From sequence record MK573636: a stretch of DNA of 64,000 bases; one strand, 5' to 3'. Shown here piece by piece: positions 306 to 17,376 of this stretch; positions within the stretch are counted from its first letter, which is position 1; every line of letters begins with the position of its first letter. A model generated the notes under the pieces. The model did no database searches. It saw only the letters and a program-made list of their open reading frames with translations, and was not told where the DNA came from. The stretch is from Escherichia phage vB_EcoM_PHB13. A program made the position numbers and the translations under genes.

Positions 306-315
306 TTATTGGGTG

Positions 316-344
316 TTGACAATCTGATCTTGCCATAGCATAAT
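316..344 (+). promoter_or_regulatory. sigma70-like early promoter, degenerate member of the cassette family
   Basis: TTGACA, 17-bp spacer, CATAAT, then leader CATCGAAACGGAGG and ATG at 369. Confidence 0.5.
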
Positions 345-368
345 ACGCACATCGAAACGGAGGAACAT

Positions 369-587
369 ATGGAAACAGAAGAACAAGTCATTGCATATTT
401 TCATCGTAAAAAGATGAAACTTAGAATCGAAAAGCAGTACATCAATCACTACATTGACCGAGTTCACTTAACAAGTACACCTTACCTATTCCGGTTGATA
501 AACCCTAGAAAACGGTGGGAGAAGTTGGATAGAAACACAAAAATAATTGATAAGCTCACCCAATGGTGGAATGAATACAACAAGTAA
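369..587 (+). CDS. hypothetical early protein
   Basis: 72-aa ORF directly downstream of promoter cassette with GGAGG ribosome-binding site. Confidence 0.5.
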   Translation: METEEQVIAYFHRKKMKLRIEKQYINHYIDRVHLTSTPYLFRLINPRKRWEKLDRNTKIIDKLTQWWNEYNK

Positions 588-601
588 AAAGTAAAAAGTA
601 G

Positions 602-629
602 TTGACACTGAATAACGGGGTAGTAAGAT
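602..629 (+). promoter_or_regulatory. sigma70-like early promoter cassette
   Basis: TTGACA, 16-bp spacer, TAAGAT; -10 lies inside inverted repeat GGGGTAGTA/TACTCCC; conserved AGGAGAATCAAA before ATG 661. Confidence 0.55.
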
Positions 630-660
630 ACTCCCATCAAGAAAACAAAGGAGAATCAAA

Positions 661-879
661 ATGAAATTTACTTGCACCGACTCTATCAACAAACACTTTG
701 TAGTGGGCGAAGTATACGAATCTACTACCATTCGCCAGCGTGACCTGATGGGTCGCCTTTACAATCAGCCAGTATTCATTATTGGTGAAGAATTGTTCTA
801 CATTGAAAACCGTCCGTGGGTTGCTTTCAATAAACGAGGACGCAAGGTAGCAAAATTCGAACTTGTCATTAAAAAGTAG
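661..879 (+). CDS. hypothetical early protein
   Basis: 72-aa ORF after cassette promoter and ribosome-binding site. Confidence 0.5.
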   Translation: MKFTCTDSINKHFVVGEVYESTTIRQRDLMGRLYNQPVFIIGEELFYIENRPWVAFNKRGRKVAKFELVIKK

Positions 880-908
880 TTGACAGCATGAAACGGGGGT
901 AGTAATAT
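880..908 (+). promoter_or_regulatory. sigma70-like early promoter cassette
   Basis: TTGACA, 17-bp spacer, TAATAT; perfect 7-bp inverted repeat GGGGGTA/TACCCCC around the -10; leader CATCGAAACGAAATACACTTTAAGGAGAATCAA. Confidence 0.55.
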
Positions 909-947
909 ACCCCCCATCGAAACGAAATACACTTTAAGGAGAATCAA

Positions 948-1097
948 ATGAACAACTTTGACGCGGTACTGAAAATGGCAATCGAAACTTACGCGGAGAT
1001 CTCCGGCGAGAAAGTAGAGGACATTATCAAAGAATGTCAGAACTTTGAAAGCCAGACAGCCAAGAATGTTCAAATGTTGATGTTTGCGGTTGCATAA
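948..1097 (+). CDS. small hypothetical protein, 49 aa, not in ORF track
   Basis: ATG 9 nt after the cassette GGAG site; translation MNNFDAVLKMAIETYAEISGEKVEDIIKECQNFESQTAKNVQMLMFAVA ends at TAA. Confidence 0.45.
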   Translation: MNNFDAVLKMAIETYAEISGEKVEDIIKECQNFESQTAKNVQMLMFAVA

Positions 1098-1105
1098 AAA
1101 AGCAG

Positions 1106-1134
1106 TTGACAGCATATCACGGGAGTAGTAAGAT
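1106..1134 (+). promoter_or_regulatory. sigma70-like early promoter cassette
   Basis: TTGACA, 17-bp spacer, TAAGAT; inverted repeat GGGAGTA/TACTCCC; AAGGAG before ATG 1168. Confidence 0.55.
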
Positions 1135-1167
1135 ACTCCCATACCAAAACAACTAAGGAGTATCAAG

Positions 1168-1566
1168 ATGATTAAATTTCAAACTCGCAAAGACGTTCTG
1201 GACTTCGTTAAAGTTTTCGGTTACGCTGCATTGCAACATGCAATGGACAAAATGACCATCTCCCCAGATCAGACTATGCTGATCCGTATGGTTAAAGCAA
1301 CCGCCTACAAAAACGACATTACCCTCTCAGAAATCAACGACGGTAATACTGTCCGCGAGGTAATTGTTTCTTTCGAATCACCGAAAATTGGCGGTTTTCA
1401 TACCACGATGTTAGGTGAAATCACTGTCACTGTATACGGGCAAGGTGGCGGAGTGTTTACCGTCAAAGAAGCAATGGAAAATGGAACGCTGAACAAAGAA
1501 AAACTGGAATTTGTCCTGAAAATCATCAAGGAGCGTAACGAAGCTCGCGATATTCTGGAAAGTTAA
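1168..1566 (+). CDS. hypothetical early protein
   Basis: 132-aa ORF after cassette; followed by terminator. Confidence 0.5.
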   Translation: MIKFQTRKDVLDFVKVFGYAALQHAMDKMTISPDQTMLIRMVKATAYKNDITLSEINDGNTVREVIVSFESPKIGGFHTTMLGEITVTVYGQGGGVFTVKEAMENGTLNKEKLEFVLKIIKERNEARDILES

Positions 1567-1574
1567 TAAGGTGG

Positions 1575-1597
1575 GCGGGAGAAATCCCGCCTTTGTT
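1575..1597 (+). terminator. rho-independent terminator
   Basis: GCGGGAGAAATCCCGC hairpin followed by CTTTGTTG. Confidence 0.55.
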
Positions 1598-1616
1598 GTG
1601 ACGTGAGGAAAGGATA

Positions 1617-2078
1617 ATGATTAATGAGCTAATAGAAAACTATGGATTCGTTAAATATTCATGTTTAGAGTGTAAAGATGGTGATGTGATTCTACCGCCT
1701 CAGAAGAACCGTTTAAATGTTCTTTATGCTATTGTGGTTGATGATGAACTGGTATACATTGGTCAGACTGTCAATCTCAGAAAGCGGATCAATTATTACC
1801 GGACTAGCATTAACAGACAAACACCAACAGCGGATACTCGCAAGAGTAAGAATATTCATAAGGCGCTAGAGGAAGGGAAGACAGTAACATTCTATTACCG
1901 CCAGTGCTTTGAGTTATATATTGAGAATCCAACGGGTAAAGATATTATAAGCACTGCCGATATCGAAGAACCTGTTTTGATCACCAAATTTAAACCAGAA
2001 TGGAACACAAATTATGTCAACAAAAGAAAACAACAAAAAAGTTTTAGCATTGTTCAAAAATCTGATGGCACTATGTGA
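1617..2078 (+). CDS. denA: GIY-YIG nuclease resembling T4 endonuclease II
   Basis: Motif VLYAIVVDDELVYIGQTVNLRKRINYYRT matches the GIY-YIG core as I recall it in T4 DenA; sits immediately upstream of rnlA as in T4. Confidence 0.6.
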   Translation: MINELIENYGFVKYSCLECKDGDVILPPQKNRLNVLYAIVVDDELVYIGQTVNLRKRINYYRTSINRQTPTADTRKSKNIHKALEEGKTVTFYYRQCFELYIENPTGKDIISTADIEEPVLITKFKPEWNTNYVNKRKQQKSFSIVQKSDGTM

Positions 2079-3183
2079 CGGATCTGATACGTTCTATTAC
2101 AAAGATGAAATTACGGCGATGCAAACCCGTATGCGCATTTTTAGCTATCTGTACTTGAGCAAACCGGAAATGTGGAATAAACCAGATGCGTTAGAGTGTC
2201 GCGGGATCATGTTTGAAATTGACGATAAAGGTCGTCCGGTCCGCATCGCATCTCGTCCTATGGAGAAGTTTTTTAATTTGGGTGAGAATGATCGCGCTCG
2301 CTTTAAGCCGGAAGATGTGGAAATGGTCATGGACAAAATGGACGGTAGTCTAGTAAGCACATACATTGATAACGGCTATGTTCAGTTGAAGTCTAAAGCG
2401 GCCTTGTACTCAAGCCAGGCAGAGAGAGCAAACGGTCTTCTGTATTCAGAGAAGTATGCGGATCTACGAGCTAAGATCGCTGATATTGGGTCTGATTATA
2501 CTTTCAACTTTGAATATACAGCACCCAGCAACCGAATTGTTGTAGAATATTCTGAACCGTCGCTAACACTTCTGAATGTACGCCATAACGTCACAGGAGA
2601 ATACGTACCGCATCAAATGCTATTTGCTGACGCAATCCTACGTTCTCATCTGGTAAATGCGTTACAGGTTGATTCAGCGCGTTTTAGTAATATTCTTGAT
2701 GAAGTTCGGACCGCAGAAGGTATCGAAGGAATTGTTGCACGCACTAAAGACGGTCAAATGTTCAAGGTGAAGAGTGAATGGTATATTGGTGTGCATAACA
2801 TTAAAAACACATCGATGTTTCCTAATAACCTGATCTACTATGTCGTAGAAAGCGAAACCGATGATTTGCGTGCTGCATATGAAGGCGAACCGGAAGCACT
2901 GGAACGAATCGAGCTATTCGAGGAAGCATTCAGGTCTATTCTTCGCAATGCCTTCACGACAGCAACAGAATTTTATAACGCACACGCGGGAGAAGACAGA
3001 AAGACATATGCATCCAATGCGACTATCGAATCACGTAAACATGGTGACGCACAAGCATATATTTTCATGTGTCTGATGATTGCATTTGATGGTCTTGATT
3101 ATGACCGTATTCTGGCTTCAATGAAAACCTACTATCTACGGAATTATAAGAAACTGATTCCGGCTGATAAGATTGATTGGTAA
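2014..3183 (+). CDS. rnlA: RNA ligase 1
   Basis: N-terminal region (RIFSYLYLS..PDALECRGIMFEIDDKGRPVRIASRPMEKFFNL) resembles T4 gp63; KMDGSL nucleotidyltransferase lysine motif. The 5' end overlaps denA by 65 nt, so the true start may be downstream. Confidence 0.75.
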   Translation: MSTKENNKKVLALFKNLMALCDGSDTFYYKDEITAMQTRMRIFSYLYLSKPEMWNKPDALECRGIMFEIDDKGRPVRIASRPMEKFFNLGENDRARFKPEDVEMVMDKMDGSLVSTYIDNGYVQLKSKAALYSSQAERANGLLYSEKYADLRAKIADIGSDYTFNFEYTAPSNRIVVEYSEPSLTLLNVRHNVTGEYVPHQMLFADAILRSHLVNALQVDSARFSNILDEVRTAEGIEGIVARTKDGQMFKVKSEWYIGVHNIKNTSMFPNNLIYYVVESETDDLRAAYEGEPEALERIELFEEAFRSILRNAFTTATEFYNAHAGEDRKTYASNATIESRKHGDAQAYIFMCLMIAFDGLDYDRILASMKTYYLRNYKKLIPADKIDW

Positions 3184-3189
3184 TAATAA

Positions 3190-3212
3190 GCGGGGCTTGC
3201 CCCGCCTTTTGT
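3190..3212 (+). terminator. rho-independent terminator
   Basis: GCGGGGCTTGCCCCGC hairpin followed by TTTTGT. Confidence 0.6.
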
Positions 3213-3225
3213 CGTTGGGGGTAAT

Positions 3226-3549
3226 ATGTCAAAACTGATATACATTGTTATCATATCTGTGTTGCTGGGGGTAGGTGGCAATATGTGGTGGGAAAATAAA
3301 AAGGAGGTAGATCGACTGAATCAGGAATTTACAGAGTATAAGAAAAAGACAGATGAGAAGATGAAGATTGTAGACTCACTACAAAAGGAGATGTACGGAA
3401 TAAGAACTAAGTTTGCAGAAGAACAAAACAAAGCAATGAAAGACGCTACACGAGGCTATGTAGTAGCACAAAAACCCAAGTTGGTAGAGAAACAGCTTAA
3501 TGATTCATTTAAGGAGTTTACCGAAGAATTAAAGGAGGCTACTAAATGA
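3226..3549 (+). CDS. membrane-anchored coiled-coil protein
   Basis: N-terminal hydrophobic helix IYIVIISVLLGVGG followed by charged heptad-like sequence. Confidence 0.45.
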   Translation: MSKLIYIVIISVLLGVGGNMWWENKKEVDRLNQEFTEYKKKTDEKMKIVDSLQKEMYGIRTKFAEEQNKAMKDATRGYVVAQKPKLVEKQLNDSFKEFTEELKEATK

Positions 3550-3998
3550 GCATAGAAATATTGCCTACACAAGAGCAGATAAGCAATTTTAATCTGGTTG
3601 ATTATCTGTGGATAGGTGCAAGCATTATTATCCTGATGGTGTTTTCAATTTTCGTGATACACTGGATGTTTAAGAAAGCACATAAGAATTTTCAGACCGC
3701 CATAATCCATGTCTTCGCTGTGCCTATTGTATTTGCTCTTTCTTCGTGTACAATGGACCATTATTCACAGGAACCGAAATTACATCCTCCACTACCAGCA
3801 CCAATAGAAAAAGTTGACATTGACCTGAATGTGGATACAATAGACGGTAAGCCTAGAGTTTCTATGTCGTGGGAGGACTCCCAAAAATTTAGAGTCTGGT
3901 TGGCTGATATTAAGAGATATACACTTGAAAGTAAGTTGATCCTGTGTTATTATCGCAAAGAACTCAATGAGGAACGGTGTAAACCGAAGGAGAAATAA
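3546..3998 (+). CDS. hypothetical membrane protein
   Basis: Two hydrophobic segments; start overlaps upstream stop, stop overlaps pseT start (TAATG). Confidence 0.45.
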   Translation: MSIEILPTQEQISNFNLVDYLWIGASIIILMVFSIFVIHWMFKKAHKNFQTAIIHVFAVPIVFALSSCTMDHYSQEPKLHPPLPAPIEKVDIDLNVDTIDGKPRVSMSWEDSQKFRVWLADIKRYTLESKLILCYYRKELNEERCKPKEK

Positions 3999-4876
3999 TG
4001 CCGAAATGTGAAGTGATTTTAACCGTTGGTTGTTCTGGGTCCGGTAAAACTACATGGGCTATGGAAACGTGTAAACGGTTTAGTAATTATCGTAATGTGA
4101 ATCGTGATGATCTTCGTCTTATGTTGTTTGGTGTTGACTCACCTTTGAAATACAAATATACTAAGGAAAAGGAAAAGCTGGTAGAGTCTATTCAGAGAAT
4201 GATTGCTCGCGAGACTCTATCACGCGGATTAAGTATCATTATCTCTGATACTAACCTGAAAGAAAAACATCGTGTATTCTACAAAGAACTTGCAAAAGAA
4301 TTTAACGCGGTGTATACTGAACAAGTGTTCAATGAATCATTTGAGACACTAAAGAAACGTAATTTCTATCGCGGCGAGAAAGCAATTCCACTTTCTCATT
4401 TGCGCAACCAATTTTATCTGATGCAGGAATATATGGGTCAAGAAGTATACAATCCGAATACCATGCTGCCGAAGGCAGTGATCTTTGATATTGATGGAAC
4501 ATTAGCGGATAAGGGCGGTCGTCATCCGTTTGACTGGACAAAGGTCAAAGAAGATAAACCACGTCCGCAAGTGATCGAAATGCTTAAACTGTATCGTGAT
4601 AATGGCTATCGTATCATTACATGCTCAGGGCGTGAGGATGTTTGCGAAGAAGATACTCTGCAATGGTTGCGTGAACAGGGTATTGAACCGAGTGATCACT
4701 TTCAACGTGAAACTAATGATCGTCGTCCTGATCATGAAGTGAAGAAAGAGATTTTCTTCTCTGAAATTGCACCGCGTTATCATGTTGTGTTGGCAGTAGA
4801 TGATCGTGATCAAGTGGTTGACATGTACCGCTCAATTGGTGTAGAATGTTTTCAGGTTAACTACGGAGACTTTTAA
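3998..4876 (+). CDS. pseT: polynucleotide 5'-kinase / 3'-phosphatase
   Basis: P-loop GCSGSGKTT, HAD phosphatase motif VIFDIDGTLAD, C-terminus VDDRDQVVDMYRSIGVECFQV closely resembles T4 Pnk. Confidence 0.85.
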   Translation: MPKCEVILTVGCSGSGKTTWAMETCKRFSNYRNVNRDDLRLMLFGVDSPLKYKYTKEKEKLVESIQRMIARETLSRGLSIIISDTNLKEKHRVFYKELAKEFNAVYTEQVFNESFETLKKRNFYRGEKAIPLSHLRNQFYLMQEYMGQEVYNPNTMLPKAVIFDIDGTLADKGGRHPFDWTKVKEDKPRPQVIEMLKLYRDNGYRIITCSGREDVCEEDTLQWLREQGIEPSDHFQRETNDRRPDHEVKKEIFFSEIAPRYHVVLAVDDRDQVVDMYRSIGVECFQVNYGDF

Positions 4877-5079
4877 TGTTTACCGATAAAATCAAGCAAT
4901 TAGGCGAAGCACTTGCTAAACGTGGTTTTAGTGTTGATATTGAACCAGCGCCAGTTATGCCGTTTAGCGATGAACGTCGTAGTTTATATGTCATCATGAG
5001 AAATAATCATGGTGTGAATACATTCAATGTAAAACAGTATAGCGACGGATCAGTAGAATACTTTCGCGTATACGGTTAA
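4876..5079 (+). CDS. hypothetical protein
   Basis: 67-aa ORF with start overlapping pseT stop (TAATG). Confidence 0.4.
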   Translation: MFTDKIKQLGEALAKRGFSVDIEPAPVMPFSDERRSLYVIMRNNHGVNTFNVKQYSDGSVEYFRVYG

Positions 5080-5100
5080 TTAATATGTGAGTATTATATT

Positions 5101-5607
5101 ATGTTGTCACAAACTTACATGCAGATCGCCTATCTAATCGCAAAGAACTCTAAATGCGTTTCGTGGAAGGTAGGCGCACTGATCGAAAAAGACGGGCGAA
5201 TCATTTCTACTGGATTTAACGGCACTCCAGCAGGGCAAGTAAATTGTATCTGTCATGCACATAAAAGCGGTTGGCTGGATGATGACGGCAAAATGATCTC
5301 AGAAAAACGACCAGAGCATAGTGCATGGTCACAGAAAAACGAGATCCACGCTGAATTAAATGCTATTTTGTTTGCTGCCCGTAGCGGTGTATCGATTGAA
5401 GGCGCTAGTATGTGGTGTACTGCTTCACCGTGTCCAGATTGCGCTAAAGCAATTGCAAACAGTGGAATTAAACATTTATACTATTGCGACACATATGATC
5501 GAAATGGTGGGCGTGATTGGGCTGATATTCTGAATAATGCAGATATTACGATCACGCGTATTCCAAAAGCATTATTGACTGATTTGAAGGGTATTGATAA
5601 TGACTGA
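5101..5607 (+). CDS. cd: dCMP deaminase
   Basis: Zinc-binding deaminase signature HAELNAI ... CTASPCPDCAKAI; position matches T4 cd. Confidence 0.8.
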   Translation: MLSQTYMQIAYLIAKNSKCVSWKVGALIEKDGRIISTGFNGTPAGQVNCICHAHKSGWLDDDGKMISEKRPEHSAWSQKNEIHAELNAILFAARSGVSIEGASMWCTASPCPDCAKAIANSGIKHLYYCDTYDRNGGRDWADILNNADITITRIPKALLTDLKGIDND

Positions 5608-5920: not shown

Positions 5921-5922
5921 CA

Positions 5923-6534: not shown

Positions 6535-6570
6535 TTTACTATTGAGATGAATTGAAGAGGTAAGAAAATT

Positions 6571-6894: not shown

Positions 6895-6905
6895 TGATTT
6901 TAAAC

Positions 6906-9566: not shown

Positions 9567-9911
9567 ATGTTCTTTATGTTTATCTATATCCTTTTTGTTT
9601 TCCTGGTAGGCATGTACGCAAGCCGTTTAAACCGTAGCGTTATCGGTTATGTTCTCCTATCTTTGATCATTAGCCCGTTGATCACCTTTATCATTTTGTT
9701 GGTGTTGGGTCCAACTAAATCATATGAACAGGAACAAGCAGACAAGCTAAAAGCAGAGATGGTAGAGAAACAATTTGTTCAACTGTATCTAGAAAACCCA
9801 GAGTTTGAGGAAGTTTCCACCCTTAAGCGAATGTATGACGATCTAACACGATACCCTAACTATCGAAATGTGCTGGCTATGGAAGAAGCCATTAAGCTCA
9901 TGAAAAAATAA
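9567..9911 (+). CDS. hypothetical membrane protein
   Basis: AAGGAG site; two predicted transmembrane helices in first 50 residues. Confidence 0.5.
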   Translation: MFFMFIYILFVFLVGMYASRLNRSVIGYVLLSLIISPLITFIILLVLGPTKSYEQEQADKLKAEMVEKQFVQLYLENPEFEEVSTLKRMYDDLTRYPNYRNVLAMEEAIKLMKK

Positions 9912-9924
9912 TTCAAAAAAGTTG

Positions 9925-9953
9925 TTGACAGGGGATCACGTATCCCCTATACT
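9925..9953 (+). promoter_or_regulatory. sigma70-like early promoter cassette
   Basis: AAAAAGTTGTTGACA, spacer GGGGATCACGTATCCCC (inverted repeat), TATACT; ATG at 9997. Confidence 0.6.
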
Positions 9954-9996
9954 ACACACATCAAAACGAAACACACTTTCTTAAGGAGAATCAAAA

Positions 9997-10308
9997 ATGA
10001 AATACATCGTAACGCTGCCAATGATTGACTTCGACGGAACCATGAACACCCAGAAGACCATGAGCGCGGAGAACCAACTGAAAAACGCTACCCTGATTCG
10101 TGAAGTTCGCAAGGCACTGGCAAAAGAATTTAACACCAAAATTCATTCTGTAACTGGCGAACGTTTCGCGGATCATCTTGATATCAATATCAAACCAGTG
10201 CGCAACGGTGTTATCTCTGTAACAACCAACCGCCCACATGCTGACGCTGATAATCTGACCGCTCGCGCAGAAGATGTAATTATGACCGTTATCATGGAAA
10301 AACTTTAA
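9997..10308 (+). CDS. hypothetical early protein; paralog of 13313..13600
   Basis: 103 aa; shares REVRKALAKEFNTK / LVRDAVAKEFNFK block with 13313 ORF. Confidence 0.5.
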   Translation: MKYIVTLPMIDFDGTMNTQKTMSAENQLKNATLIREVRKALAKEFNTKIHSVTGERFADHLDINIKPVRNGVISVTTNRPHADADNLTARAEDVIMTVIMEKL

Positions 10309-10317
10309 AAAAAGTTG

Positions 10318-10347
10318 TTGACAGGGGAGGTTAAACTCCCCTATAAT
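10318..10347 (+). promoter_or_regulatory. sigma70-like early promoter cassette
   Basis: TTGACA, 18-bp spacer GGGGAGGTTAAACTCCCC, TATAAT. Confidence 0.6.
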
Positions 10348-10381
10348 ACACACATACCGAAACGAACTAGGAGAATCAATT

Positions 10382-10561
10382 ATGAACTTCAACGAAATCA
10401 TCGCTAAAATCCGCTACAACGAAGAAACCATTGAACTGATGCAAAACAATATCACCAATGGATATATGATTGCAGCGTCACAAGAAATCATTGATTTGAC
10501 GGTAGCAGAAAATGCTCAGTTGAAACATCAACTTTCAACGGCTGGCGTGATTGTTATGTAA
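10382..10561 (+). CDS. small hypothetical protein, 59 aa, not in ORF track
   Basis: ATG after cassette GGAGAATCAATT; translation MNFNEIIAKIRYNEETIELMQNN... Confidence 0.45.
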   Translation: MNFNEIIAKIRYNEETIELMQNNITNGYMIAASQEIIDLTVAENAQLKHQLSTAGVIVM

Positions 10562-10578
10562 TAAAGAGAGGTGACTAA

Positions 10579-10881
10579 ATGGCAAAAGTTCAGGTAGGTG
10601 AGGTCTTCAAAATGGAAGACCATACCGTGGAAGAGATGAAAGGCGCAGTATTGAAAGTAATTAATTCAATGTGGCGTAGTGTGCTTTACATCAACTTTAT
10701 CGACGGTGATGTGTGGTGGGCTAGCGATAGCGATAAATGGGATATCAAGTTCTACAAAGGTCATACTCACTGGTTAGGATCAGAGGATGTTGTAGAAGTT
10801 CTGGCGGTTGATGTTATGCCAGGAGAGATCGAGAATCTTAGCGGAACAGCAAAAGAAGCATTGACACGCCATTTTGCGTAA
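10579..10881 (+). CDS. HxHW-family small protein, copy 1 of 6
   Basis: 100 aa; GHTHW ... VLAVDVMPGE signature shared with five downstream paralogs. Confidence 0.55.
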   Translation: MAKVQVGEVFKMEDHTVEEMKGAVLKVINSMWRSVLYINFIDGDVWWASDSDKWDIKFYKGHTHWLGSEDVVEVLAVDVMPGEIENLSGTAKEALTRHFA

Positions 10882-10937
10882 TGTAGTATAACAATAATCG
10901 GGAGGGTAATACTCTCCCACAAATTGAGGATAATATT

Positions 10938-11129
10938 ATGTGTGGTCTTAAAATGGTTGCTGAATATAAGCGAACTGGTAATGTTATGATGTATCGACGC
11001 AATGCCAACGAAGAATGGAAACCTTCAAACCGCATTAAATCCATCCAGACGTTTATGAATAACATCAAAGAAAACCTTTTCGTTAAGCGTGCTGGTGCTG
11101 GACATTGGGAAGTTTACGAAGCTGTATAA
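10938..11129 (+). CDS. hypothetical protein
   Basis: 63 aa; preceded by degenerate cassette hairpin GGGAGGGTAATACTCTCCC and GAGGA site. Confidence 0.4.
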   Translation: MCGLKMVAEYKRTGNVMMYRRNANEEWKPSNRIKSIQTFMNNIKENLFVKRAGAGHWEVYEAV

Positions 11130-11145
11130 TTTTGAGGAAAATATT

Positions 11146-11454
11146 ATGGAACAAACTAAGCTATTTGTCGCGGAACCTTTTGTAAGAGACAATAAAAATC
11201 TGGCTAAAACAATCATTTTGTATTCGGATTGGATCTTTTATATCGATGGTAATTTAGACGTATATTGTCGCACAGCTCCAACTGATTCGTTTTATATCGA
11301 AGAAAACGACACTCATAATCATTGGTATGATGGAAACGACAAAACCGAACTAGCTGTTGTCCTAGCGTCAGACGTAGAACCTGAAAACGCGGACAAAGTA
11401 GCAGACAAATTTATGAAGTACGCATATAAAGATAAAAATGAAGATGAAGAATAA
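11146..11454 (+). CDS. HxHW-family small protein, copy 2 of 6
   Basis: THNHW ... LAVVLASDVEPENADKVADKF; ORF track start 11089 trimmed to ATG 11146. Confidence 0.5.
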   Translation: MEQTKLFVAEPFVRDNKNLAKTIILYSDWIFYIDGNLDVYCRTAPTDSFYIEENDTHNHWYDGNDKTELAVVLASDVEPENADKVADKFMKYAYKDKNEDEE

Positions 11455-11461
11455 AAAGTTG

Positions 11462-11490
11462 TTGACAGGGGATCACCGATCCCCTATAAT
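11462..11490 (+). promoter_or_regulatory. sigma70-like early promoter cassette
   Basis: TTGACA, spacer GGGGATCACCGATCCCC, TATAAT. Confidence 0.6.
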
Positions 11491-11524
11491 ACACACATAC
11501 CAACGAGATATAGGAGAATCAAAA

Positions 11525-11692
11525 ATGTTCCAGACTAAAGCAGAATGCGAAGCATACATTGTAGCAAACCACGGTGAAGACTACCTGAAATTCGATATCG
11601 TAGTAGCACAGAAGATCACCGGAATGGTTGCAAAATATCTGGGTGTTAAAGAAGGTTACTATCCTAGCAACGCACCAGAAATTAACAAATAA
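11525..11692 (+). CDS. small protein, 55 aa; near-identical paralog of 14783..14950
   Basis: MFQTKAECEAYIVANHGEDYLKFDIVVAQKITGMVAKYLGVKEGYYPSNAPEINK versus MFETKAACEAYIIETHGEDYLKFDIVVAQKIVGMVAKYLGVKEGYYPSNAPEINK; ORF track start 11438 lies inside the promoter. Confidence 0.55.
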   Translation: MFQTKAECEAYIVANHGEDYLKFDIVVAQKITGMVAKYLGVKEGYYPSNAPEINK

Positions 11693-11695
11693 TAG

Positions 11696-11724
11696 TTGAC
11701 AATGATTAAAGGGAGTAGTAAGAT
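11696..11724 (+). promoter_or_regulatory. sigma70-like early promoter cassette
   Basis: TTGACA, 17-bp spacer, TAAGAT; inverted repeat GGGAGTA/TACTCCC identical to the copy at 1121. Confidence 0.55.
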
Positions 11725-11756
11725 ACTCCCATCAAGACAACAAACGGAGAATCAAA

Positions 11757-11936
11757 ATGAAAGCTATCGAAGTTCAGAAGTACATGGAAATCATCGTTGA
11801 AAGTAAAGCACATTTAGTGTTGACTACTCACGTAGGATATGATAAAAATGTGCATATGCTGGTAGACAACATCGGCTGGATGAAGTTTAATCCTAACGAG
11901 AACGTACAAGCTCAAGAAATGACCATCCCTTTCTAA
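11757..11936 (+). CDS. small hypothetical protein, 59 aa, not in ORF track
   Basis: ATG after cassette GGAGAATCAAA; translation MKAIEVQKYMEIIVESKAHLVLTTHVGYDKNVHM... Confidence 0.45.
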   Translation: MKAIEVQKYMEIIVESKAHLVLTTHVGYDKNVHMLVDNIGWMKFNPNENVQAQEMTIPF

Positions 11937-11948
11937 GAGGAATATATT

Positions 11949-12227
11949 ATGATGCGAATTACTGCAACGCTGGATAAGACACACAAAGAAAGATTTTTCG
12001 GTATGATCTTAAAAACGCCGATTTTCGATAATTACCTTTATGTTGACTATAACGGTCACATTAGCTATAAATGTAAAAATGATATTCGTGATTCCTTTGG
12101 TGATAAATCACAAGCCGATATTCACGATCATTGGTGGAACCATGACGAACCTTTACGGGTTATCGCAGTTGATGTAAAAACAACAAAAGAAGCTGATAAG
12201 GTAGTGAATGATTATGAGCAAATTTAA
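11949..12227 (+). CDS. HxHW-family small protein, copy 3 of 6
   Basis: IHDHWWNHDEPLRVIAVDVKTTKEADKVV; AAGAGGA site. Confidence 0.55.
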   Translation: MMRITATLDKTHKERFFGMILKTPIFDNYLYVDYNGHISYKCKNDIRDSFGDKSQADIHDHWWNHDEPLRVIAVDVKTTKEADKVVNDYEQI

Positions 12228-12423
12228 AGATTATAAAGCATATCAACAGATCTTGCGAGTATACGAACCAGAGTTCGCCGAAAAGATGATGGAAGATGCA
12301 TCAAAATGCCCGTCCTTTTCTGGAAACAAAAACCATTATTCTACTGGTATTGTATCATGGAAAGAAACCGCATATACTCAACAATGGATAGATGTGTTTT
12401 CAAAAACTCTTGATTGGTGTTAA
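12208..12423 (+). CDS. small protein; tandem paralog A
   Basis: MSKFKDYKAY ... MMEDA ... W; paralogous to the next gene. Confidence 0.45.
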   Translation: MIMSKFKDYKAYQQILRVYEPEFAEKMMEDASKCPSFSGNKNHYSTGIVSWKETAYTQQWIDVFSKTLDWC

Positions 12424-12425
12424 TT

Positions 12426-12641
12426 ATGAGTAAATTTAAAGATTATCGAGCATATAAAGCGATCTGCGATATATTCGATGAAAAGACCGCTCATGCAATG
12501 ATGGAAGATGCAGAACAATATGAATCATTCGTCAATTCCAAAGATTGCACAGTAAACGAGGTTGTGTGCTGGAAAGATACAAAGTATGAAGAAAAATGGA
12601 TTACTGTGTATTACGGAGAACTAGAATATGAAATTAACTAA
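12426..12641 (+). CDS. small protein; tandem paralog B
   Basis: MSKFKDYRAY ... MMEDA ... W; ORF track start 12414 is TTG, ATG at 12426. Confidence 0.45.
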   Translation: MSKFKDYRAYKAICDIFDEKTAHAMMEDAEQYESFVNSKDCTVNEVVCWKDTKYEEKWITVYYGELEYEIN

Positions 12642-12948
12642 AAAGATTTTCCCAGAATTGCGTAACTGTCTGTTACTGGTTACTGAATATAAACCTTATA
12701 CGATCTACTTGTATGTTGATGAAAATCTGAAAATCCGTTACTATGATTATACGTCTCCAGTAATGAGATCATTTGCTCACGCGATAGCAAACAATTGTAT
12801 GAATCATAATCATTGGGTAAGTGATAATGATCATGATGCGTCAGAAGTTGTAGTGATCGCATGGAATCTATCACCAGCGGAAGCAGATCAAGCACGCATT
12901 AAGCATTATGCGAAAAACAATTGGTTTGACCTTATAAGTGAGGACTAA
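12628..12948 (+). CDS. HxHW-family small protein, copy 4 of 6
   Basis: MNHNHWVSDNDHDASEVVVIAWNLSPAEADQARIKHY. Confidence 0.5.
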   Translation: MKLTKKIFPELRNCLLLVTEYKPYTIYLYVDENLKIRYYDYTSPVMRSFAHAIANNCMNHNHWVSDNDHDASEVVVIAWNLSPAEADQARIKHYAKNNWFDLISED

Positions 12949-12952
12949 TATT

Positions 12953-13231
12953 ATGTTCAAAGTAGGTGATAAGTTTATTCTTAGTCGTGATATTCTCCCT
13001 AATCTGAAAGGTTGTATCATCAATCCTAGTAAAAATTCATGGTTTTATCTGTTTATCGACGACAAACTGAATGTACGCGCCGAATATAAAGAAGGTCTTC
13101 GTACTGGTCTAGGTTTCTTTCACGATCATGATCATAGCCATTGGCTAAACGGTGGATTCGAAGCAACGGTGCTAGCGGTTGATGTGACTTACACGAACAT
13201 CATAGAAAAATATCAAAAAATTATTTTATAA
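12953..13231 (+). CDS. HxHW-family small protein, copy 5 of 6
   Basis: FHDHDHSHWLNGGFEATVLAVDVTY; GAGGA site 9 nt upstream of ATG 12953. Confidence 0.5.
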   Translation: MFKVGDKFILSRDILPNLKGCIINPSKNSWFYLFIDDKLNVRAEYKEGLRTGLGFFHDHDHSHWLNGGFEATVLAVDVTYTNIIEKYQKIIL

Positions 13232-13237
13232 AAAGTG

Positions 13238-13266
13238 TTGACATAAGATCGGGTGTATAGCATAAT
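13238..13266 (+). promoter_or_regulatory. sigma70-like early promoter cassette
   Basis: TTGACA, 17-bp spacer, CATAAT inside perfect 8-bp inverted repeat GGGTGTAT/ATACACCC. Confidence 0.55.
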
Positions 13267-13312
13267 ACACCCATCGAAACGAGATACACTTTCTAACTAG
13301 GAGAATCAAATT

Positions 13313-13600
13313 ATGGCATACATCACTATCACTCTGAAAGTTAACAAATTTGCTCACGCTGCACACGAAACCGATAATGCAATCCGTAACAACAAGTTTG
13401 CACGTCTGGTACGCGATGCAGTAGCTAAAGAGTTCAACTTCAAATTTGCAGATGGTAAAGTTATCACTAAATGGACTCATGACGGCGAAACTAAAGTAGA
13501 ACTTGCTGACAACTTCGCAAATCAGGAATATGCACACCGCCGCATCAATGAAATCATCAGCGATGAACTCTACTACGGAGTACAGGAAGGTTTGTTTTAA
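13313..13600 (+). CDS. hypothetical early protein; paralog of 9997..10308
   Basis: 95 aa; shared AKEFN block. Confidence 0.5.
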   Translation: MAYITITLKVNKFAHAAHETDNAIRNNKFARLVRDAVAKEFNFKFADGKVITKWTHDGETKVELADNFANQEYAHRRINEIISDELYYGVQEGLF

Positions 13601-13604
13601 TATA

Positions 13605-13626
13605 GGGGGCGTTAAGCCCCTTTTAA
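13605..13626 (+). terminator. rho-independent terminator
   Basis: GGGGGCGTTAAGCCCC hairpin followed by TTTT. Confidence 0.55.
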
Positions 13627-13649
13627 TCTATCTGAATGAGGATATCACT

Positions 13650-13958
13650 ATGAAAAATCTTGTAGTTGAATTTACCCGCGAGAATTTACCACAATTTCGC
13701 AATTCTCTGCTTAAACTAGAGAACAGTAATTATGATGTATATTTTTACATCACCGAAGATCTAGAGATCCTTTACGCTGATTACCCAGGTCCGATCCGTA
13801 CCTTCGAAACCGCATCAAAATATAAAAATGTGCACGGTCATGAGCACTGGTTACGAGAAAACCCAGGTCGCAAGAAAGCACGCGTTAAAGTGTTGGCGAT
13901 TGACATAACACCAGCATACGCCGACCGGATTGCACAGAATGATTATTTGTCTAAATGA
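13650..13958 (+). CDS. HxHW-family small protein, copy 6 of 6
   Basis: VHGHEHWLRENPGRKKARVKVLAIDITPAYADRIAQNDY; ORF track start 13503 trimmed to ATG 13650 with GAGGA site. Confidence 0.5.
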   Translation: MKNLVVEFTRENLPQFRNSLLKLENSNYDVYFYITEDLEILYADYPGPIRTFETASKYKNVHGHEHWLRENPGRKKARVKVLAIDITPAYADRIAQNDYLSK

Positions 13959-13965
13959 TTTCATT

Positions 13966-13991
13966 AGCCGACCTTAGTGTCGGCTTTTTTA
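13966..13991 (+). terminator. rho-independent terminator
   Basis: GCCGAC-loop-GTCGGC hairpin followed by TTTTTT. Confidence 0.6.
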
Positions 13992-14016
13992 TTGCATAAA
14001 ATTTAAAAAAAAGGCA

Positions 14017-14045
14017 TTGACACCAGATCACGCCTATAGCATAAT
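14017..14045 (+). promoter_or_regulatory. sigma70-like early promoter cassette, one hairpin arm lost
   Basis: TTGACA, 17-bp spacer, CATAAT, ATACACCC arm only; conserved leader CATCGAAACGAGATACCACTTAGGAGAATCAAA. Confidence 0.5.
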
Positions 14046-14085
14046 ACACCCATCGAAACGAGATACCACTTAGGAGAATCAAACA

Positions 14086-14355
14086 ATGGCGCTGACTAAA
14101 ACCACTACCAACTTTGCAAAACGTCACGGCTTCGACCTTGAAATCAATAGCTTTAACGATTACACCCTTCTGTGTGTATATGAAATCGAAAATGATTGCG
14201 AGTGGATGTTCAGCTATCGCGTAAACGAAGACGGATCTTTCACTTGGAACGGAAATATCTATCTTGCACAGGAAGTAAAAGAAGAACTTCCGGCGACTAT
14301 CAAAGATGAGAAACATTTACGTCAAGTTTTAAAATTTATTTCTGAAAATATCTAA
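14086..14355 (+). CDS. hypothetical early protein
   Basis: 89-aa ORF after cassette. Confidence 0.5.
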   Translation: MALTKTTTNFAKRHGFDLEINSFNDYTLLCVYEIENDCEWMFSYRVNEDGSFTWNGNIYLAQEVKEELPATIKDEKHLRQVLKFISENI

Positions 14356-14362
14356 AAAGTTG

Positions 14363-14391
14363 TTGACACCAAAGTAAGAACATAGCATAAT
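14363..14391 (+). promoter_or_regulatory. sigma70-like early promoter cassette
   Basis: AAAAAGTTGTTGACA, 17-bp spacer, CATAAT. Confidence 0.5.
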
Positions 14392-14424
14392 ACACCCATA
14401 CCGAAACGAACTGGAGAATCAAAA

Positions 14425-14706
14425 ATGAAATTCATCAAAGCAACCGAAATCCTGAAAAACAAAGAAGCATACATCGGAAACATCGTTGGTATGAACATTC
14501 GCGGCGCTGGTAGCCAGTGGACCAAACTGGTTGATGTTAAAGCTAAAGGCGATAAAATTGAGTTCACTGTAAAAATGCTTACTCATAACGCACATATGGG
14601 TATCAAGACAAAAACGATGGCAGCAGATAAAAGCATCAACTATCAGGATCTGGGTGATTGGCTGAACTGGTGCAAAATGCACAACATCGAAACTAATCAC
14701 GAATAA
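14425..14706 (+). CDS. hypothetical early protein
   Basis: 93-aa ORF after cassette. Confidence 0.5.
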   Translation: MKFIKATEILKNKEAYIGNIVGMNIRGAGSQWTKLVDVKAKGDKIEFTVKMLTHNAHMGIKTKTMAADKSINYQDLGDWLNWCKMHNIETNHE

Positions 14707-14720
14707 TTTTAAAAAAGTTG

Positions 14721-14749
14721 TTGACGGGGATCGGGAGATCCCCTATAAT
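14721..14749 (+). promoter_or_regulatory. sigma70-like early promoter cassette
   Basis: TTGACG, spacer GGGGATCGGGAGATCCCC, TATAAT. Confidence 0.55.
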
Positions 14750-14782
14750 ACACACATACCGAAACGAAATAGGAGAATCAAA

Positions 14783-14950
14783 ATGTTCGAGACTAAAGCA
14801 GCATGTGAAGCATATATCATTGAAACCCACGGCGAAGATTATCTGAAATTTGACATTGTAGTAGCACAGAAGATTGTAGGGATGGTTGCGAAATACCTCG
14901 GAGTTAAAGAAGGTTACTATCCAAGCAACGCACCGGAAATTAACAAATAA
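14783..14950 (+). CDS. small protein, 55 aa; near-identical paralog of 11525..11692; not in ORF track
   Basis: See 11525 feature; ATG after AGGAGAATCAAA. Confidence 0.5.
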   Translation: MFETKAACEAYIIETHGEDYLKFDIVVAQKIVGMVAKYLGVKEGYYPSNAPEINK

Positions 14951-14965
14951 TTTTTATAAAAAGTG

Positions 14966-14994
14966 TTGACAGGGGAGACACCCTCCCCTATAAT
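14966..14994 (+). promoter_or_regulatory. sigma70-like early promoter cassette
   Basis: TTGACA, spacer GGGGAGACACCCTCCCC, TATAAT. Confidence 0.6.
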
Positions 14995-15034
14995 ACAACC
15001 ATCAAGACGAGATACCACTTAGGAGAATCAAACA

Positions 15035-15286
15035 ATGGCTAACATCGAAACCGCAAAGAAAATCGCTAAAGACCTGAACGTTAAAGGCTTCCGTAAACTG
15101 AAATTACAGCGTGTACGCTACACCATCGGCAAACAGTGCTCTTTCATGAGCGAAGAAGTTGCTAACAGCCTCATTGATAACCTGATTGCGGCTGGCTGGG
15201 AAGTTGCGGATCTGAAAACTTGCCGCGAACTGGCTAACAAAGGTCTTTTAGATTCTGTTACTATAAAACCAATGGGGGCAGCGTGA
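15035..15286 (+). CDS. hypothetical protein, first gene of a five-gene operon
   Basis: 83 aa; first 16 nt (ATGGCTAACATCGAAA) identical to the start of the 17164 gene. Confidence 0.5.
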   Translation: MANIETAKKIAKDLNVKGFRKLKLQRVRYTIGKQCSFMSEEVANSLIDNLIAAGWEVADLKTCRELANKGLLDSVTIKPMGAA

Positions 15287-15528
15287 AAAGAAAATTAATT
15301 AAACGAAATAAGGAATTTTTGAATAACTGCATTAAGGTTGCTAATGGTTGGCCTTTGTTCCTCTTCCTTTATGATTGGTATTCTAAACAATCGGTAGAGG
15401 AAACACGACACTATAAGAAGATCAGAAAAGAATCATATACAAAACAAGGCCGCATTAACGGACTTTACTTAATGTGGCACGGCAAAGAACCTTCTAAAAT
15501 CTGTGTTGGATTAAAGGGGCGTATATGA
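15283..15528 (+). CDS. basic hypothetical protein
   Basis: 81 aa; apparent GTG start overlapping upstream stop; no internal ATG until residue 64, so start is uncertain. Confidence 0.35.
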   Translation: MKRKLIKRNKEFLNNCIKVANGWPLFLFLYDWYSKQSVEETRHYKKIRKESYTKQGRINGLYLMWHGKEPSKICVGLKGRI

Positions 15529-16241
15529 AACAAAAATTAATATTCTGCAACTTTGACGGATCGGGGATAATGGGGCTAGAATGGGCTAAAGCAGGTCATA
15601 AGGTGATCTGCTTTAATGCAGATGATGCCGACCACGGCACATACAAAAAGTATAATACCCGATTTGAACATCCAAACATTACATATGTAAACACATGGAT
15701 TGATTTGGATTGGCTGGAAAGAGCAATGGACCTTGAATGGGGAAAACCAGATATTATCTTTGCATTCCCACCGTGCACCAATTTAGCTGTTAGTGGCGCT
15801 GCACACTTTGAACGAAAGAAACGAGAACAAGGACCATTAATTCAAGTTCATGATGTAAGGGCAGCTAAAATAACCGCTTATTTGGGCGAATGGTTAGAAG
15901 TTCCCTACATGATAGAGAATCCTGTAAGCGTTATCTCTAGCATGTGGCGTAAGCCTGATTACATGTTCCACCCGTGGGAATATGGCGGTTATTTGCCGGA
16001 ATATGATATACATCCTACGTTTCCTGAGTATATTGCCTCCCGTGATATGTACCCGAAAAAGACTTGCTTATGGACGGGACAAGGTTTTATAATGCCAGAA
16101 AAGAAACCTATACCGATTAATAAAGGGTACAGTAAACAGCATTCTAAGCTAGGCGGGAAAGGAACCAGAACAAAGACTATCAGGTCACTTACCCCGCGAG
16201 GATTCGCAAAGGCAGTATTTGAAGCCAATAAGGATCTATGA
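15525..16241 (+). CDS. cytosine-C5 methyltransferase-like protein (mini Dcm fold)
   Basis: Motif I-like LIFCNFDGSG, motif IV-like FAFPPCTNLAVSGAA (Pro-Cys), motif VI-like MIENPVS, C-terminal RSLTPRGFAKAV; only 238 aa with no room for a target-recognition domain. Confidence 0.45.
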   Translation: MKQKLIFCNFDGSGIMGLEWAKAGHKVICFNADDADHGTYKKYNTRFEHPNITYVNTWIDLDWLERAMDLEWGKPDIIFAFPPCTNLAVSGAAHFERKKREQGPLIQVHDVRAAKITAYLGEWLEVPYMIENPVSVISSMWRKPDYMFHPWEYGGYLPEYDIHPTFPEYIASRDMYPKKTCLWTGQGFIMPEKKPIPINKGYSKQHSKLGGKGTRTKTIRSLTPRGFAKAVFEANKDL

Positions 16242-16570
16242 TGGGATTGTTTAAGTATTCGCTAACGTCAAATTACGATAAACAAGGTCATTGCATCAGT
16301 TGCCCTGATTGTCGTAGCCATAACATCGAAAGCAAGATCACCGATCATATTGATGGACTTTGGTCGCCAGCAAGCGAGATAGAATACTATTGCGCTGATT
16401 GTGGAATTGTAGTAGCATATTGGGCATACGGATCATATGATCCTTACTTCCAGATGGGAGAGCGTTCAATCCCTGCTCTTATCTGGAGAATTAAGAACAA
16501 TATCCGCCATTCATGGGATGAGTTCTTAAAAGATATTGATTTACGTGATGATCCATTCAGGAGACTATAA
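16238..16570 (+). CDS. zinc-ribbon protein
   Basis: CISCPDC ... CADCG (two CxxC pairs); start overlaps upstream stop. Confidence 0.4.
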   Translation: MMGLFKYSLTSNYDKQGHCISCPDCRSHNIESKITDHIDGLWSPASEIEYYCADCGIVVAYWAYGSYDPYFQMGERSIPALIWRIKNNIRHSWDEFLKDIDLRDDPFRRL

Positions 16571-16571
16571 C

Positions 16572-17090
16572 ATGAACCGTTTGACGCCTAAACGCCGTTA
16601 CTATACCAATACTAAAAACTTTGTCATCTCTGTTTATGAGGCGTGGTTAGAAGATGGCTATATCAACATGAACCCAGATTACCAGCGTCCTTTGGTATGG
16701 GACACCGAAAACAAACGTATGTTTATCGAAAACCTGATTAATGATTTTCCGGTTGGTGCTATCGCAATGGCTAAGATTGATGATGGCTCTCGCTATGAGA
16801 TCGAAATCGTGGACGGTAAACAGCGTTTAAACGCAATATTCTCCTTTATGAAAGATGAGTTTAGCATTGCTGGTAATGATGATTCTATGTTGTATTACAG
16901 TGATTTTACGCCAGCAGAAAAGCGACGTTTTCGCAATCTCGGACTACCCGCGATCATGATGGAAGAGAGCACACGAGAAGATCGATTAGAATATTTCTAC
17001 AAAACAAACTTTTTCGGTGTGCCTCAATCAGAAGATCATCGCCAGCATGTGATTGCATTATTGCAAGATGAGCAATTAAAAAATAACTAA
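16572..17090 (+). CDS. DUF262 / ParB-like nuclease-superfamily domain protein
   Basis: NPDYQRPLVWD ... EIVDGKQRLNAI (YQR-W and DGxQR motifs); ORF track start 16536 trimmed to ATG 16572 with AGGAG site. Confidence 0.6.
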   Translation: MNRLTPKRRYYTNTKNFVISVYEAWLEDGYINMNPDYQRPLVWDTENKRMFIENLINDFPVGAIAMAKIDDGSRYEIEIVDGKQRLNAIFSFMKDEFSIAGNDDSMLYYSDFTPAEKRRFRNLGLPAIMMEESTREDRLEYFYKTNFFGVPQSEDHRQHVIALLQDEQLKNN

Positions 17091-17097
17091 AAAGTTG

Positions 17098-17127
17098 TTG
17101 ACAGGGGGATCGGTGATCCCCTATAAT
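17098..17127 (+). promoter_or_regulatory. sigma70-like early promoter cassette
   Basis: TTGACA, 18-bp spacer GGGGGATCGGTGATCCCC, TATAAT. Confidence 0.6.
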
Positions 17128-17163
17128 GCAAACATACCGAAACGAACTACTAAGGAGTATCAA

Positions 17164-17376
17164 ATGGCTAACATCGAAATCATCATTACCGACGTAACTT
17201 ATGACCGCATTAACGAAATCGGTACTGCTTTGCTAGAAGATGGAACAACTCGCACCATCAACTACGCAGAATACGTTGAAATGCGCGGTTGTATTAAACG
17301 AGTAGGAAAATATATCCTGATTGAAAAAGACTATTCAGGATACACATTAGAGCAATTGCTCGATGGTGCATTATAA
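17164..17376 (+). CDS. hypothetical protein
   Basis: 70 aa; ORF track start 17095 lies in the promoter; ATG at 17164 after AAGGAG. Confidence 0.5.
   Translation: MANIEIIITDVTYDRINEIGTALLEDGTTRTINYAEYVEMRGCIKRVGKYILIEKDYSGYTLEQLLDGAL

Follow-up and report, generated by a model that had tools for sequence, protein, structure and literature searches.

Promoter-early stem-loop cassettes of the RB49 type before small early genes of Escherichia phage vB_EcoM_PHB13

Promoter-early stem-loop (PeSL) elements were defined in the coliphages RB49 and phi1, in which about 52 PeSLs per genome have been reported, clustered in hyperplastic regions upstream of ORFans (Arbiol et al., 2010, Genome Biol Evol 2:140; PMC2839356). 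An element of this kind is composed of an AT-rich tract, the promoter TTGACA-N17-TATAAT, a stem-loop located in the spacer or over the -10, a ribosome-binding site (RBS) and the ATG. The stem-loop of PeSL211/210 alone cut read-through like rrnB T1, the promoter of PeSL206/205 gave about 13,000 Miller units, and PeSL mini-circles, in which the crossovers fall in the stretch from the -10 to the RBS, were reported (PMC2839356). The early-promoter consensus of RB49 agrees with 5'-end mapping (Nolan et al., PMC1524935). Here we analyse a repeated promoter/leader module that precedes small early genes in a stretch of 64,000 nucleotides from Escherichia phage vB_EcoM_PHB13 (MK573636), hereafter the window, and compare it with these elements.

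PeSLs have also been described in T4/PST and KVP40/nt-1, where they are likewise promoter/terminator/RBS composites before variable genes of hyperplastic regions and are associated with indels (Comeau et al., 2014; PMC4122927). Their promoter consensus is weaker (TTTACW or TTGYVH), their stems differ (AGNA..TCNT; A3-4G3..C3T3-4), and their stem-loops are placed upstream of the promoter, whereas those of the RB49 type are placed inside it (PMC4122927). Integron gene cassettes (attC) are similar in that small promoter-dependent gene units between structured repeats are excised as circles and reinserted, giving variable arrays, but their movement depends on a dedicated integrase and on attC sites folded as single strands, and they are usually promoterless; the phage cassettes each carry their own promoter, their exchange points vary and apparently no recombinase is involved.

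A nucleotide search with bases 1-18000 of the window places the source DNA in the genus Krischvirus (RB49-like T4-type coliphages, Straboviridae), as 59 phage records match and every one of them is RB49-like, the closest being Escherichia virus KFS-EC with 96.8% identity across the full length. Fourteen clear copies of the module are present, all on the plus strand and at the coordinates that an earlier note on this DNA had listed, each with TTGAC[AG], a spacer of 16-18 nt and a -10-like hexamer. A profile built from these copies and run against both strands of the window recovers all fourteen between 295 and 17165 (each E <= 4e-10), and the sole other notable match in the 64 kb lies on the minus strand (58951..58896, E 2.3e-5). 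The motif GGAGWATCAA is found 14 times against 0.33 expected from shuffles, 13 of these inside cassettes, and the A-tract with its -35 pattern 13 times against 1.5 expected. A degenerate copy near 10897, which had been proposed as a fifteenth member, is dropped from the set, since the profile gives it an E of 8 and only a GGGAG...CTCCC hairpin and a GAGG-type RBS are kept.

The part of the window at 9.9-17.2 kb is orthologous and collinear with RB49 ORF211c-ORF185c, the region used in the experiments of Arbiol et al. (2010; PMC2839356), and three of its cassettes are orthologues of named RB49 elements. Designating cassettes by the first position of the -35, cassette 9925 is identical to PeSL211/210 at 97 of 99 positions, cassette 11462 to PeSL206/205 at 72 of 79, and cassette 14721 to PeSL192/191 at 81 of 86; this orthology makes the match one by descent, not by resemblance alone. 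Two features of the RB49 consensus, T or C at -12 and C-rich positions -3 to -1 (PMC1524935), are also present in the cassettes, and the GenBank record of GEC-3S annotates promoters at homologous sites. We conclude that the repeated module very probably represents the PeSL cassettes of an RB49-like T4-type phage, combining a promoter, a terminator-like hairpin and a homology for recombination. The assignment, already made in the earlier note, is supported by homology together with every defining feature that can be read from the sequence, and the cassettes are already known biology, found in the same genus and at the same locus where PeSLs were defined. The genome has its own set of units compared with RB49 and phi1, but nothing essential differs. 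Promoter and terminator activity of the cassettes is predicted from the RB49/phi1 orthologues (PMC2839356).

The cassettes and related elements are listed below; the window was compared with RB49 (two records), KFS-EC, phiS, FL04, GEC-3S, Makalu_002, UPWr_E1 and kaaroe, some of which are named in the list.

277..371, plus strand: cassette 1, TTGACA at 316, -10 CATAAT at 339, GGAGG RBS, ATG at 369 (profile E 3.9e-10); canonical terminator hairpin with T-run at 277-300 upstream, promoter without internal hairpin.
589..663, plus strand: cassette 2, A-tract, TTGACA at 602, GGAGAATCAAA, ATG at 661; hairpin GGGGTA-GTAAGA-TACTCC(C) over the -10 TAAGAT.
858..950, plus strand: cassette 3, TTGACA at 880, long leader, ATG at 948; hairpin GGGGGTA-GTAATA-TACCCCC over the -10; left partner of a deletion in phiS and UPWr_E1.
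1088..1170, plus strand: cassette 4, TTGACA at 1106, GGAGTATCAAG, ATG at 1168; hairpin GGGAGTA-GTAAGA-TACTCCC over the -10; the downstream gene ends at a terminator (1573-1592).
9908..9999, plus strand: cassette 5, TTGACA at 9925, -10 TATACT, ATG at 9997; hairpin GGGGAT-CACGT-ATCCCC in the spacer; orthologue of RB49 PeSL211/210.
10298..10384, plus strand: cassette 6, TTGACA at 10318, TATAAT, ATG at 10382; hairpin GGGGAG-GTTAAA-CTCCCC in the spacer; right partner of a deletion in UPWr_E1 and Makalu.
10861..10940, plus strand: degenerate remnant, TTGACA inside the upstream gene, GAGGA RBS, ATG at 10938; imperfect hairpin GGGAG..CTCCC; profile E 8.1, not significant.
11449..11527, plus strand: cassette 7, -35 at 11462, TATAAT, ATG at 11525; hairpin GGGGATC-ACC-GATCCCC in the spacer; orthologue of RB49 PeSL206/205.
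11678..11759, plus strand: cassette 8, -35 at 11696, ATG at 11757; hairpin GGGAGTA-GTAAGA-TACTCCC over the -10 TAAGAT; leads a 6-gene run up to 13231.
13219..13315, plus strand: cassette 9, -35 at 13238, long leader, ATG at 13313; hairpin GGGTGTAT-AGCATA-ATACACCC over the -10 CATAAT; the downstream gene ends at a terminator (13604-13621).
13966..14088, plus strand: cassette 10, TTGACA at 14017, CATAAT, ATG at 14086; canonical terminator (13966-13985) upstream, 5' arm of the hairpin lost; an extra unit of 407-431 bp stands here in RB49 and UPWr_E1.
14345..14427, plus strand: cassette 11, TTGACA at 14363, CATAAT, ATG at 14425; the 3' hairpin arm ATACACCC alone retained, no upstream terminator.
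14701..14785, plus strand: cassette 12, TTGACG at 14721, ATG at 14783; hairpin GGGGATC-GGGA-GATCCCC in the spacer; orthologue of RB49 PeSL192/191; one cassette where RB49 (AY343333) has the 544-bp ORF192 unit.
14947..15037, plus strand: cassette 13, -35 at 14966, TATAAT, ATG at 15035; hairpin GGGGAG-ACACC-CTCCCC in the spacer; leads a 5-gene run, one gene of which is labelled Dcm / putative C-5 cytosine DNA methylase in the records of relatives.
17080..17166, plus strand: cassette 14, -35 at 17098, TATAAT, GGAGTATCAA, ATG at 17164; hairpin GGGGATC-GGT-GATCCCC in the spacer; chimera of the two cassettes that border an extra 59-aa gene in six relatives (GEC-3S, FL04, Makalu, UPWr_E1, kaaroe and RB49 AY343333).
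19513..19576, plus strand: divergent element, TTGACT, 17-nt spacer, TATACT, ATG at 19574; hairpin GGGGCTAGT..ACTAGCCCC over the -10, then TTTT; GEC-3S annotates a promoter at the matching site.
58887..58985, minus strand: opposite-strand element, TTGACA at 58947, TATAAT, CACATCTAAAC leader, GGAGG, ATG; terminator hairpin upstream of the promoter, of the same subclass as cassette 1.

The last two belong to a small group of divergent promoter/terminator composites of the PeSL kind that were observed beyond the interval covered by the earlier note, at 19513 (plus strand), 32944-33020 (plus), 33515-33620 (plus) and 58887-58985 (minus).

A multiple alignment of the fourteen copies, suggested in the earlier note as a way to define boundaries, gives a unit of about 75-95 bp. 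The aligned order is AAAAAG(T/C)NG-TTGACA, spacer, -10 hexamer, ACAC(A/C)C, CAT(A)C(C/G/A)AAAC..., (A)GGAG(A/T)ATCAA and ATG, and the A-rich tract 5' of the -35 usually contains the stop codon of the preceding gene. The -35 is TTGACA in 13 cassettes and TTGACG in one, the -10 varies among TATAAT, CATAAT, TAAGAT, TATACT and TAATAT, and in a sigma-70 consensus scan all fourteen score 10-12 of 12 and head the list. Promoter types and leader types are paired in all four possible ways, which is further evidence of recombination between copies. A GGAG stands 6-9 nt upstream of the ATG in every cassette, within a fixed ribosome-binding context (GGAGAATCAAA), and in one pair the identity continues into the coding sequence, the genes at 15035 and 17164 sharing their first 16 nt (ATGGCTAACATCGAAA) as had been noticed before. 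The promoter, leader and RBS parts of the module as first described are correct, but the stem-loop that gives the elements their name, present in 11 of the 14 cassettes, had been overlooked.

The ribosome-binding context also resembles the strong RegB/S1 site of T4, for which the consensus GG*AGRAYARAA has been given (PMC3014915). The conserved motif GGAGAAUCAAA fits 10 of the 11 positions of this consensus, and over individual cassettes the fit of GGAGAATCAAA is 10/11 in ten and 8-9/11 in the other four. It is conceivable, and compatible with PeSL identity, that GGAGAAUCAAA is kept as a RegB/S1 cleavage site serving as a built-in shut-off of early mRNAs, although we would not call this reading probable. 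In its favor, GGAG is used by all fourteen cassette-led genes and by only 6 of the 30 others, which mostly use GAGG (Fisher P 3e-7), and the predicted leaders are 18-40 nt long, 50% A and essentially unstructured (minimum free energy >= -3.3 kcal/mol), although the predicted unpaired probability of the GGAG ranges from 0.12 to 0.79. The genus also encodes a homologue of the enzyme, which in GEC-3S has 42% identity to T4 RegB (E 8e-25), and the RegB of RB49 is reported to be divergent but active (PMC3014915). A tblastn search with T4 RegB found no match in the 64-kb window, regB being located elsewhere in Krischvirus genomes. Against this reading, a 6-of-7 match in an A-rich spacer has, given GGAG, about a 7% chance by our own estimate, and the 14/14 count is not independent evidence for RegB sites because the cassette copies are homologous. 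As in T4 early mRNAs, the GGAG of early genes is followed by an A-rich context, but the divergent RB49-type RegB may prefer different sites, and the motif is also simply a good RBS. RegB is not mentioned in the two PeSL papers (PMC2839356, PMC4122927). Putative cleavage of the cassette leaders by RegB is thus a plausible lead, suggestive at most.

The stem-loop is a hairpin of a G-run and a C-run with predicted energies of -7 to -12.5 kcal/mol. In six cassettes (9925, 10318, 11462, 14721, 14966 and 17098) it fills the spacer with an exact fit, and in five (602, 880, 1106, 11696 and 13238) it overlaps the -10; cassettes 316 and 14017 have no internal hairpin but are preceded, 16-31 nt before the -35, by a canonical terminator made of a hairpin and a T-run. 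In the window together with nine Krischvirus loci we found 31 distinct hairpins in which the stems vary but remain paired, so that it is the structure which is conserved and not one sequence. Compensatory pairs include GGGGAT/ATCCCC versus GGGGAG/CTCCCC and GGGAGTA/TACTCCC versus GGGGGTA/TACCCCC, the latter with a G.T intermediate, and further paired stems are GGGTGTAT/ATACACCC and GGGGATAT/ATATCCCC. If transcription starts about 7 nt past the -10, a position that we infer and on which the location of the hairpin relative to the transcript rests, each hairpin stands 5' of the start site of its own cassette. This leaves only the RNA of the preceding unit, or DNA, for it to act on.

The second option, that the hairpin works as a DNA cruciform or a protein-binding operator that shuts early promoters and not mainly as an RNA terminator, appears unlikely. 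The location inside the promoter and the missing U-tract would agree with it, and so would loop inversions (ACC versus GGT) in a perfect palindrome, which indicate that the DNA palindrome itself is dynamic. However, the compensatory stem changes and the unrelated loops favor a structure over a sequence-specific operator, cassettes without a hairpin have canonical terminators in the equivalent place, and the stem-loop of PeSL211/210 cut read-through on its own (PMC2839356). The loop inversions are an observation in their own right: GGGGATC-ACC-GATCCCC and its exact reverse complement GGGGATC-GGT-GATCCCC occur 9 and 8 times, respectively, in orthologous and paralogous cassettes, for example at 11468-11484 of the window versus its RB49 counterpart. 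The presence of both orientations means that the loop has apparently been flipped, as template switching or the processing of cruciforms would bring about at a palindrome.

With the hairpin read as part of a PeSL, the following mechanism can be proposed. Host RNA polymerase (sigma-70) would fire from each cassette immediately after infection and each cassette would thereby express one small gene of unknown function, or a few such genes in a row, while the hairpin would act as terminator or attenuator on RNA arriving from the previous unit, which is experimental for RB49 PeSL211/210. Because about 80 bp of near-identical sequence recur every few hundred bases, homologous recombination between cassettes deletes, inserts, duplicates or replaces promoter-plus-gene units, and every exchange leaves one intact chimeric cassette, as the comparative junctions show.

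Structural differences between the window and its relatives were listed from blastn high-scoring segment pairs by overlap-tolerant chaining. This comparison gives 18 distinct differences, 8 of which run from cassette to cassette, 2 have one breakpoint in a cassette and 8 are free of cassettes. Cassette-bounded gain and loss of genes in related genomes, the absence of which the earlier note had named as speaking against its proposal, is thus directly seen in the eight events below, in all of which both flanks share 17-98 bp of junction sequence, both breakpoints fall in cassettes and the surviving cassettes are chimeric.

915-1092: loss in phiS and UPWr_E1.
9962-10307: loss in UPWr_E1 and Makalu.
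14758-14983: loss in UPWr_E1.
11499-14386: replacement in FL04.
14435-14711: replacement in FL04.
13997: extra unit of 407-431 bp in RB49 and UPWr_E1.
14707: extra 544-bp ORF192 unit in RB49 (AY343333).
17098: extra unit of 222-232 bp in six phages.

In triple alignments the surviving cassette is a chimera of the two that flank it, and the switch from one to the other falls in the -35 region for phiS, twice in the -10/discriminator for UPWr_E1, and in the leader CATACCGAAACGA for cassette 17098. As in RB49 and phi1, indels are bounded by cassettes, and crossovers between the -10 and the RBS are the same as in the mini-circles. Cassettes contain 18 of the 36 breakpoints while covering 7.4% of the sequence (P ~1e-11); under a stricter null, in which breakpoints fall at gene junctions only (14 of 43 carry a cassette), P is 0.005. 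Duplication is also represented, as the unit 11449-11692 recurs at 14701-14950 with 89% protein identity and homology from the A-tract to the stop codon, and the cassette-led genes at 9997 and 13313 share one PHROG. The cassettes are a major route of genome plasticity, among others.

In the absence of the ORF192 unit the window has the topology of phi1 (PMC2839356 Figure 3), and its own set of units lacks the 59-aa gene unit at 17098 and includes an open reading frame (ORF) at 9567-9911 and an HNH gene. The possibility that the second RB49 record, OZ035808, is an RB49 stock that had lost ORF192 was ruled out, since its identity to AY343333 of 97.5-98.5% marks it as a different isolate.

A dedicated mobile element, of which the cassettes would be the ends or attachment sites moved by a site-specific recombinase or homing enzyme, is a very improbable source of these exchanges. 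Comeau et al. (2014) left "homologous or site-specific recombination" open (PMC4122927), the palindromes of a G-run and a C-run might serve for recognition, and homing endonucleases are encoded nearby. Yet the crossover point is not fixed, falling in the -35 region, the -10 region, the leader or the AT-rich edge according to the event, target-site duplications and terminal inverted repeats are absent, cassettes do not bound the HNH insertion at 5908-6547, and among the annotated genes of the variable blocks no recombinase was noticed. That each copy is a strong promoter of separate origin, brought to the sigma-70 and RBS consensus by convergence, with neither common descent nor a role in recombination, is scarcely credible: the -35, the -10 and GGAG are all functionally constrained and the top scan hits might simply be the best promoters, but identity also runs through AAAAAGTTG 5' of the -35, CATACCGAAACGA in the leader and AATCAAA after the GGAG, positions without known constraint, and the chimeric junctions with their overlaps in relatives reflect real exchange between copies.

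Several points nevertheless weigh against the view of the cassettes as PeSLs with both a terminating and a recombining role. Part of the excess of breakpoints in cassettes is to be expected, since an indel has to lie between genes to be viable, and 8 of the 18 structural differences involve no cassette, including the HNH insertion and gene changes within cassette-less runs. Cassette 14363 lacks both the hairpin, of which only the 3' arm is left, and a terminator upstream, and in the loss of the hairpin it is unlike the RB49/phi1 PeSLs. The cassette hairpins lack a U-tract and the consensus scan calls none of them an intrinsic terminator, so that termination efficiency is extrapolated from one tested RB49 orthologue.

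What the window offers is mostly confirmatory, namely the recovery, in a new RB49-like genome, of a mechanism of phage genome plasticity that had been published before. The junction alignments give clean examples of cassette exchange at the nucleotide level, well beyond RB49 and phi1 as the original pair and in many further Krischvirus genomes, and show crossover points spread across the cassette. Two leads may go slightly past the literature, the RegB/S1 fit of the RBS context and the occurrence of the same architecture in a phage of the Vequintavirinae; neither is established.

The latter came from a sensitive blastn search with one cassette, which found only Krischvirus records (58, with 5-10 detectable copies each) and Cronobacter phage PBES 02. 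This phage (NC_028672) is a Certrevirus of the Vequintavirinae and not T4-type, and its right-hand 12 kb (138-149.7 kb) contain at least 12 hairpin-promoters before small ORFs. They consist of an A-tract, TTGAC(G/A), a GC-rich hairpin in the spacer or over the -10 (such as CCGGGACGGTTCCCGG or GGGGCC..GGCCCC), (T/C)ATAAT, a CA-rich leader, a ribosome-binding site and the ATG, and one of them is 75% identical to the window cassette at 14703-14785. A literature search found no description of hairpin-in-spacer promoters in Vequintavirinae, and the design in this phage is possibly a new side observation; it may be convergent. As a tentative extension, and a doubtful one, the PeSL may be a plug-and-play early-gene unit whose RegB/S1 site silences a captured ORF after the early period, the parallel in PBES 02 making the hairpin-in-promoter a general, and possibly convergent, solution of large virulent phages and not a peculiarity of the T4 type. 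Any ORF caught between two cassettes would then be strongly expressed and subsequently silenced.

The interval bearing the cassettes contains T4-type early-region genes (denA, rnlA, pseT, cd, gene 31, DNA ligase and alt, among others) broken up by two blocks of small genes with hypothetical products only, and the cassettes sit in these hyperplastic regions, upstream of ORFans. Cassettes lead 14 of the 44 genes in the interval and 14 of the 28 within the two variable blocks, and many small genes stand in cassette-less runs; the claim that the module precedes most small plus-strand genes was thus an overstatement. Cassette-led genes are all labelled hypothetical in the annotations of relatives. 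The ten products scanned against PHROGs all fell into the category "unknown function", and the seven scanned against Pfam gave no match, the two scans jointly covering all fourteen. An Rfam scan of the whole window at gathering thresholds found no family. The GC content at third codon positions is higher in the 14 cassette-led genes than in the 30 others (0.44 vs 0.36, Mann-Whitney P 3e-5), with no significant difference in overall GC, which could reflect codon adaptation to very early high expression or a different origin.

Among the differences that are not cassette-bounded on both sides, a 205-aa ORF with NUMOD4 and HNH_3 domains (5908-6547, 640 bp), a homing endonuclease, is also found in KFS-EC and phiS; seven other records, including RB49 OZ035808, FL04, GEC-3S, Makalu_002, UPWr_E1 and kaaroe, have 25-29 bp at this site instead. 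An ORF for a predicted membrane protein of 114 aa (9567-9911), located between the gene at 9086-9559 and cassette 9925, is missing from RB49, GEC-3S, kaaroe, UPWr_E1 and others, and its right breakpoint alone adjoins a cassette. Within the run led by cassette 14966, UPWr_E1 lacks an 81-aa ORF (15283-15528), the deletion junction having an overlap of 16 bp, 536 bp replace this ORF in phiS, and a 184-bp gene is inserted at 16565-16571 in FL04 and kaaroe. The differences at 15283-15539 and 16565-16571 suggest exchange at short repeats without cassettes.

The cassette-less small genes within 10579-13958 include a paralogous family (starts at 10579, 11146, 11949, 12628, 12953 and 13650) whose products share a His-rich H-x-H-W motif and, after it, a "...V(L/I)A(V/I)D(V/I)" segment; the member tested against Pfam, at 12628, had no match. 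Another observation is that the genes at 12208 and 12426 form a tandem pair with 41% identity.

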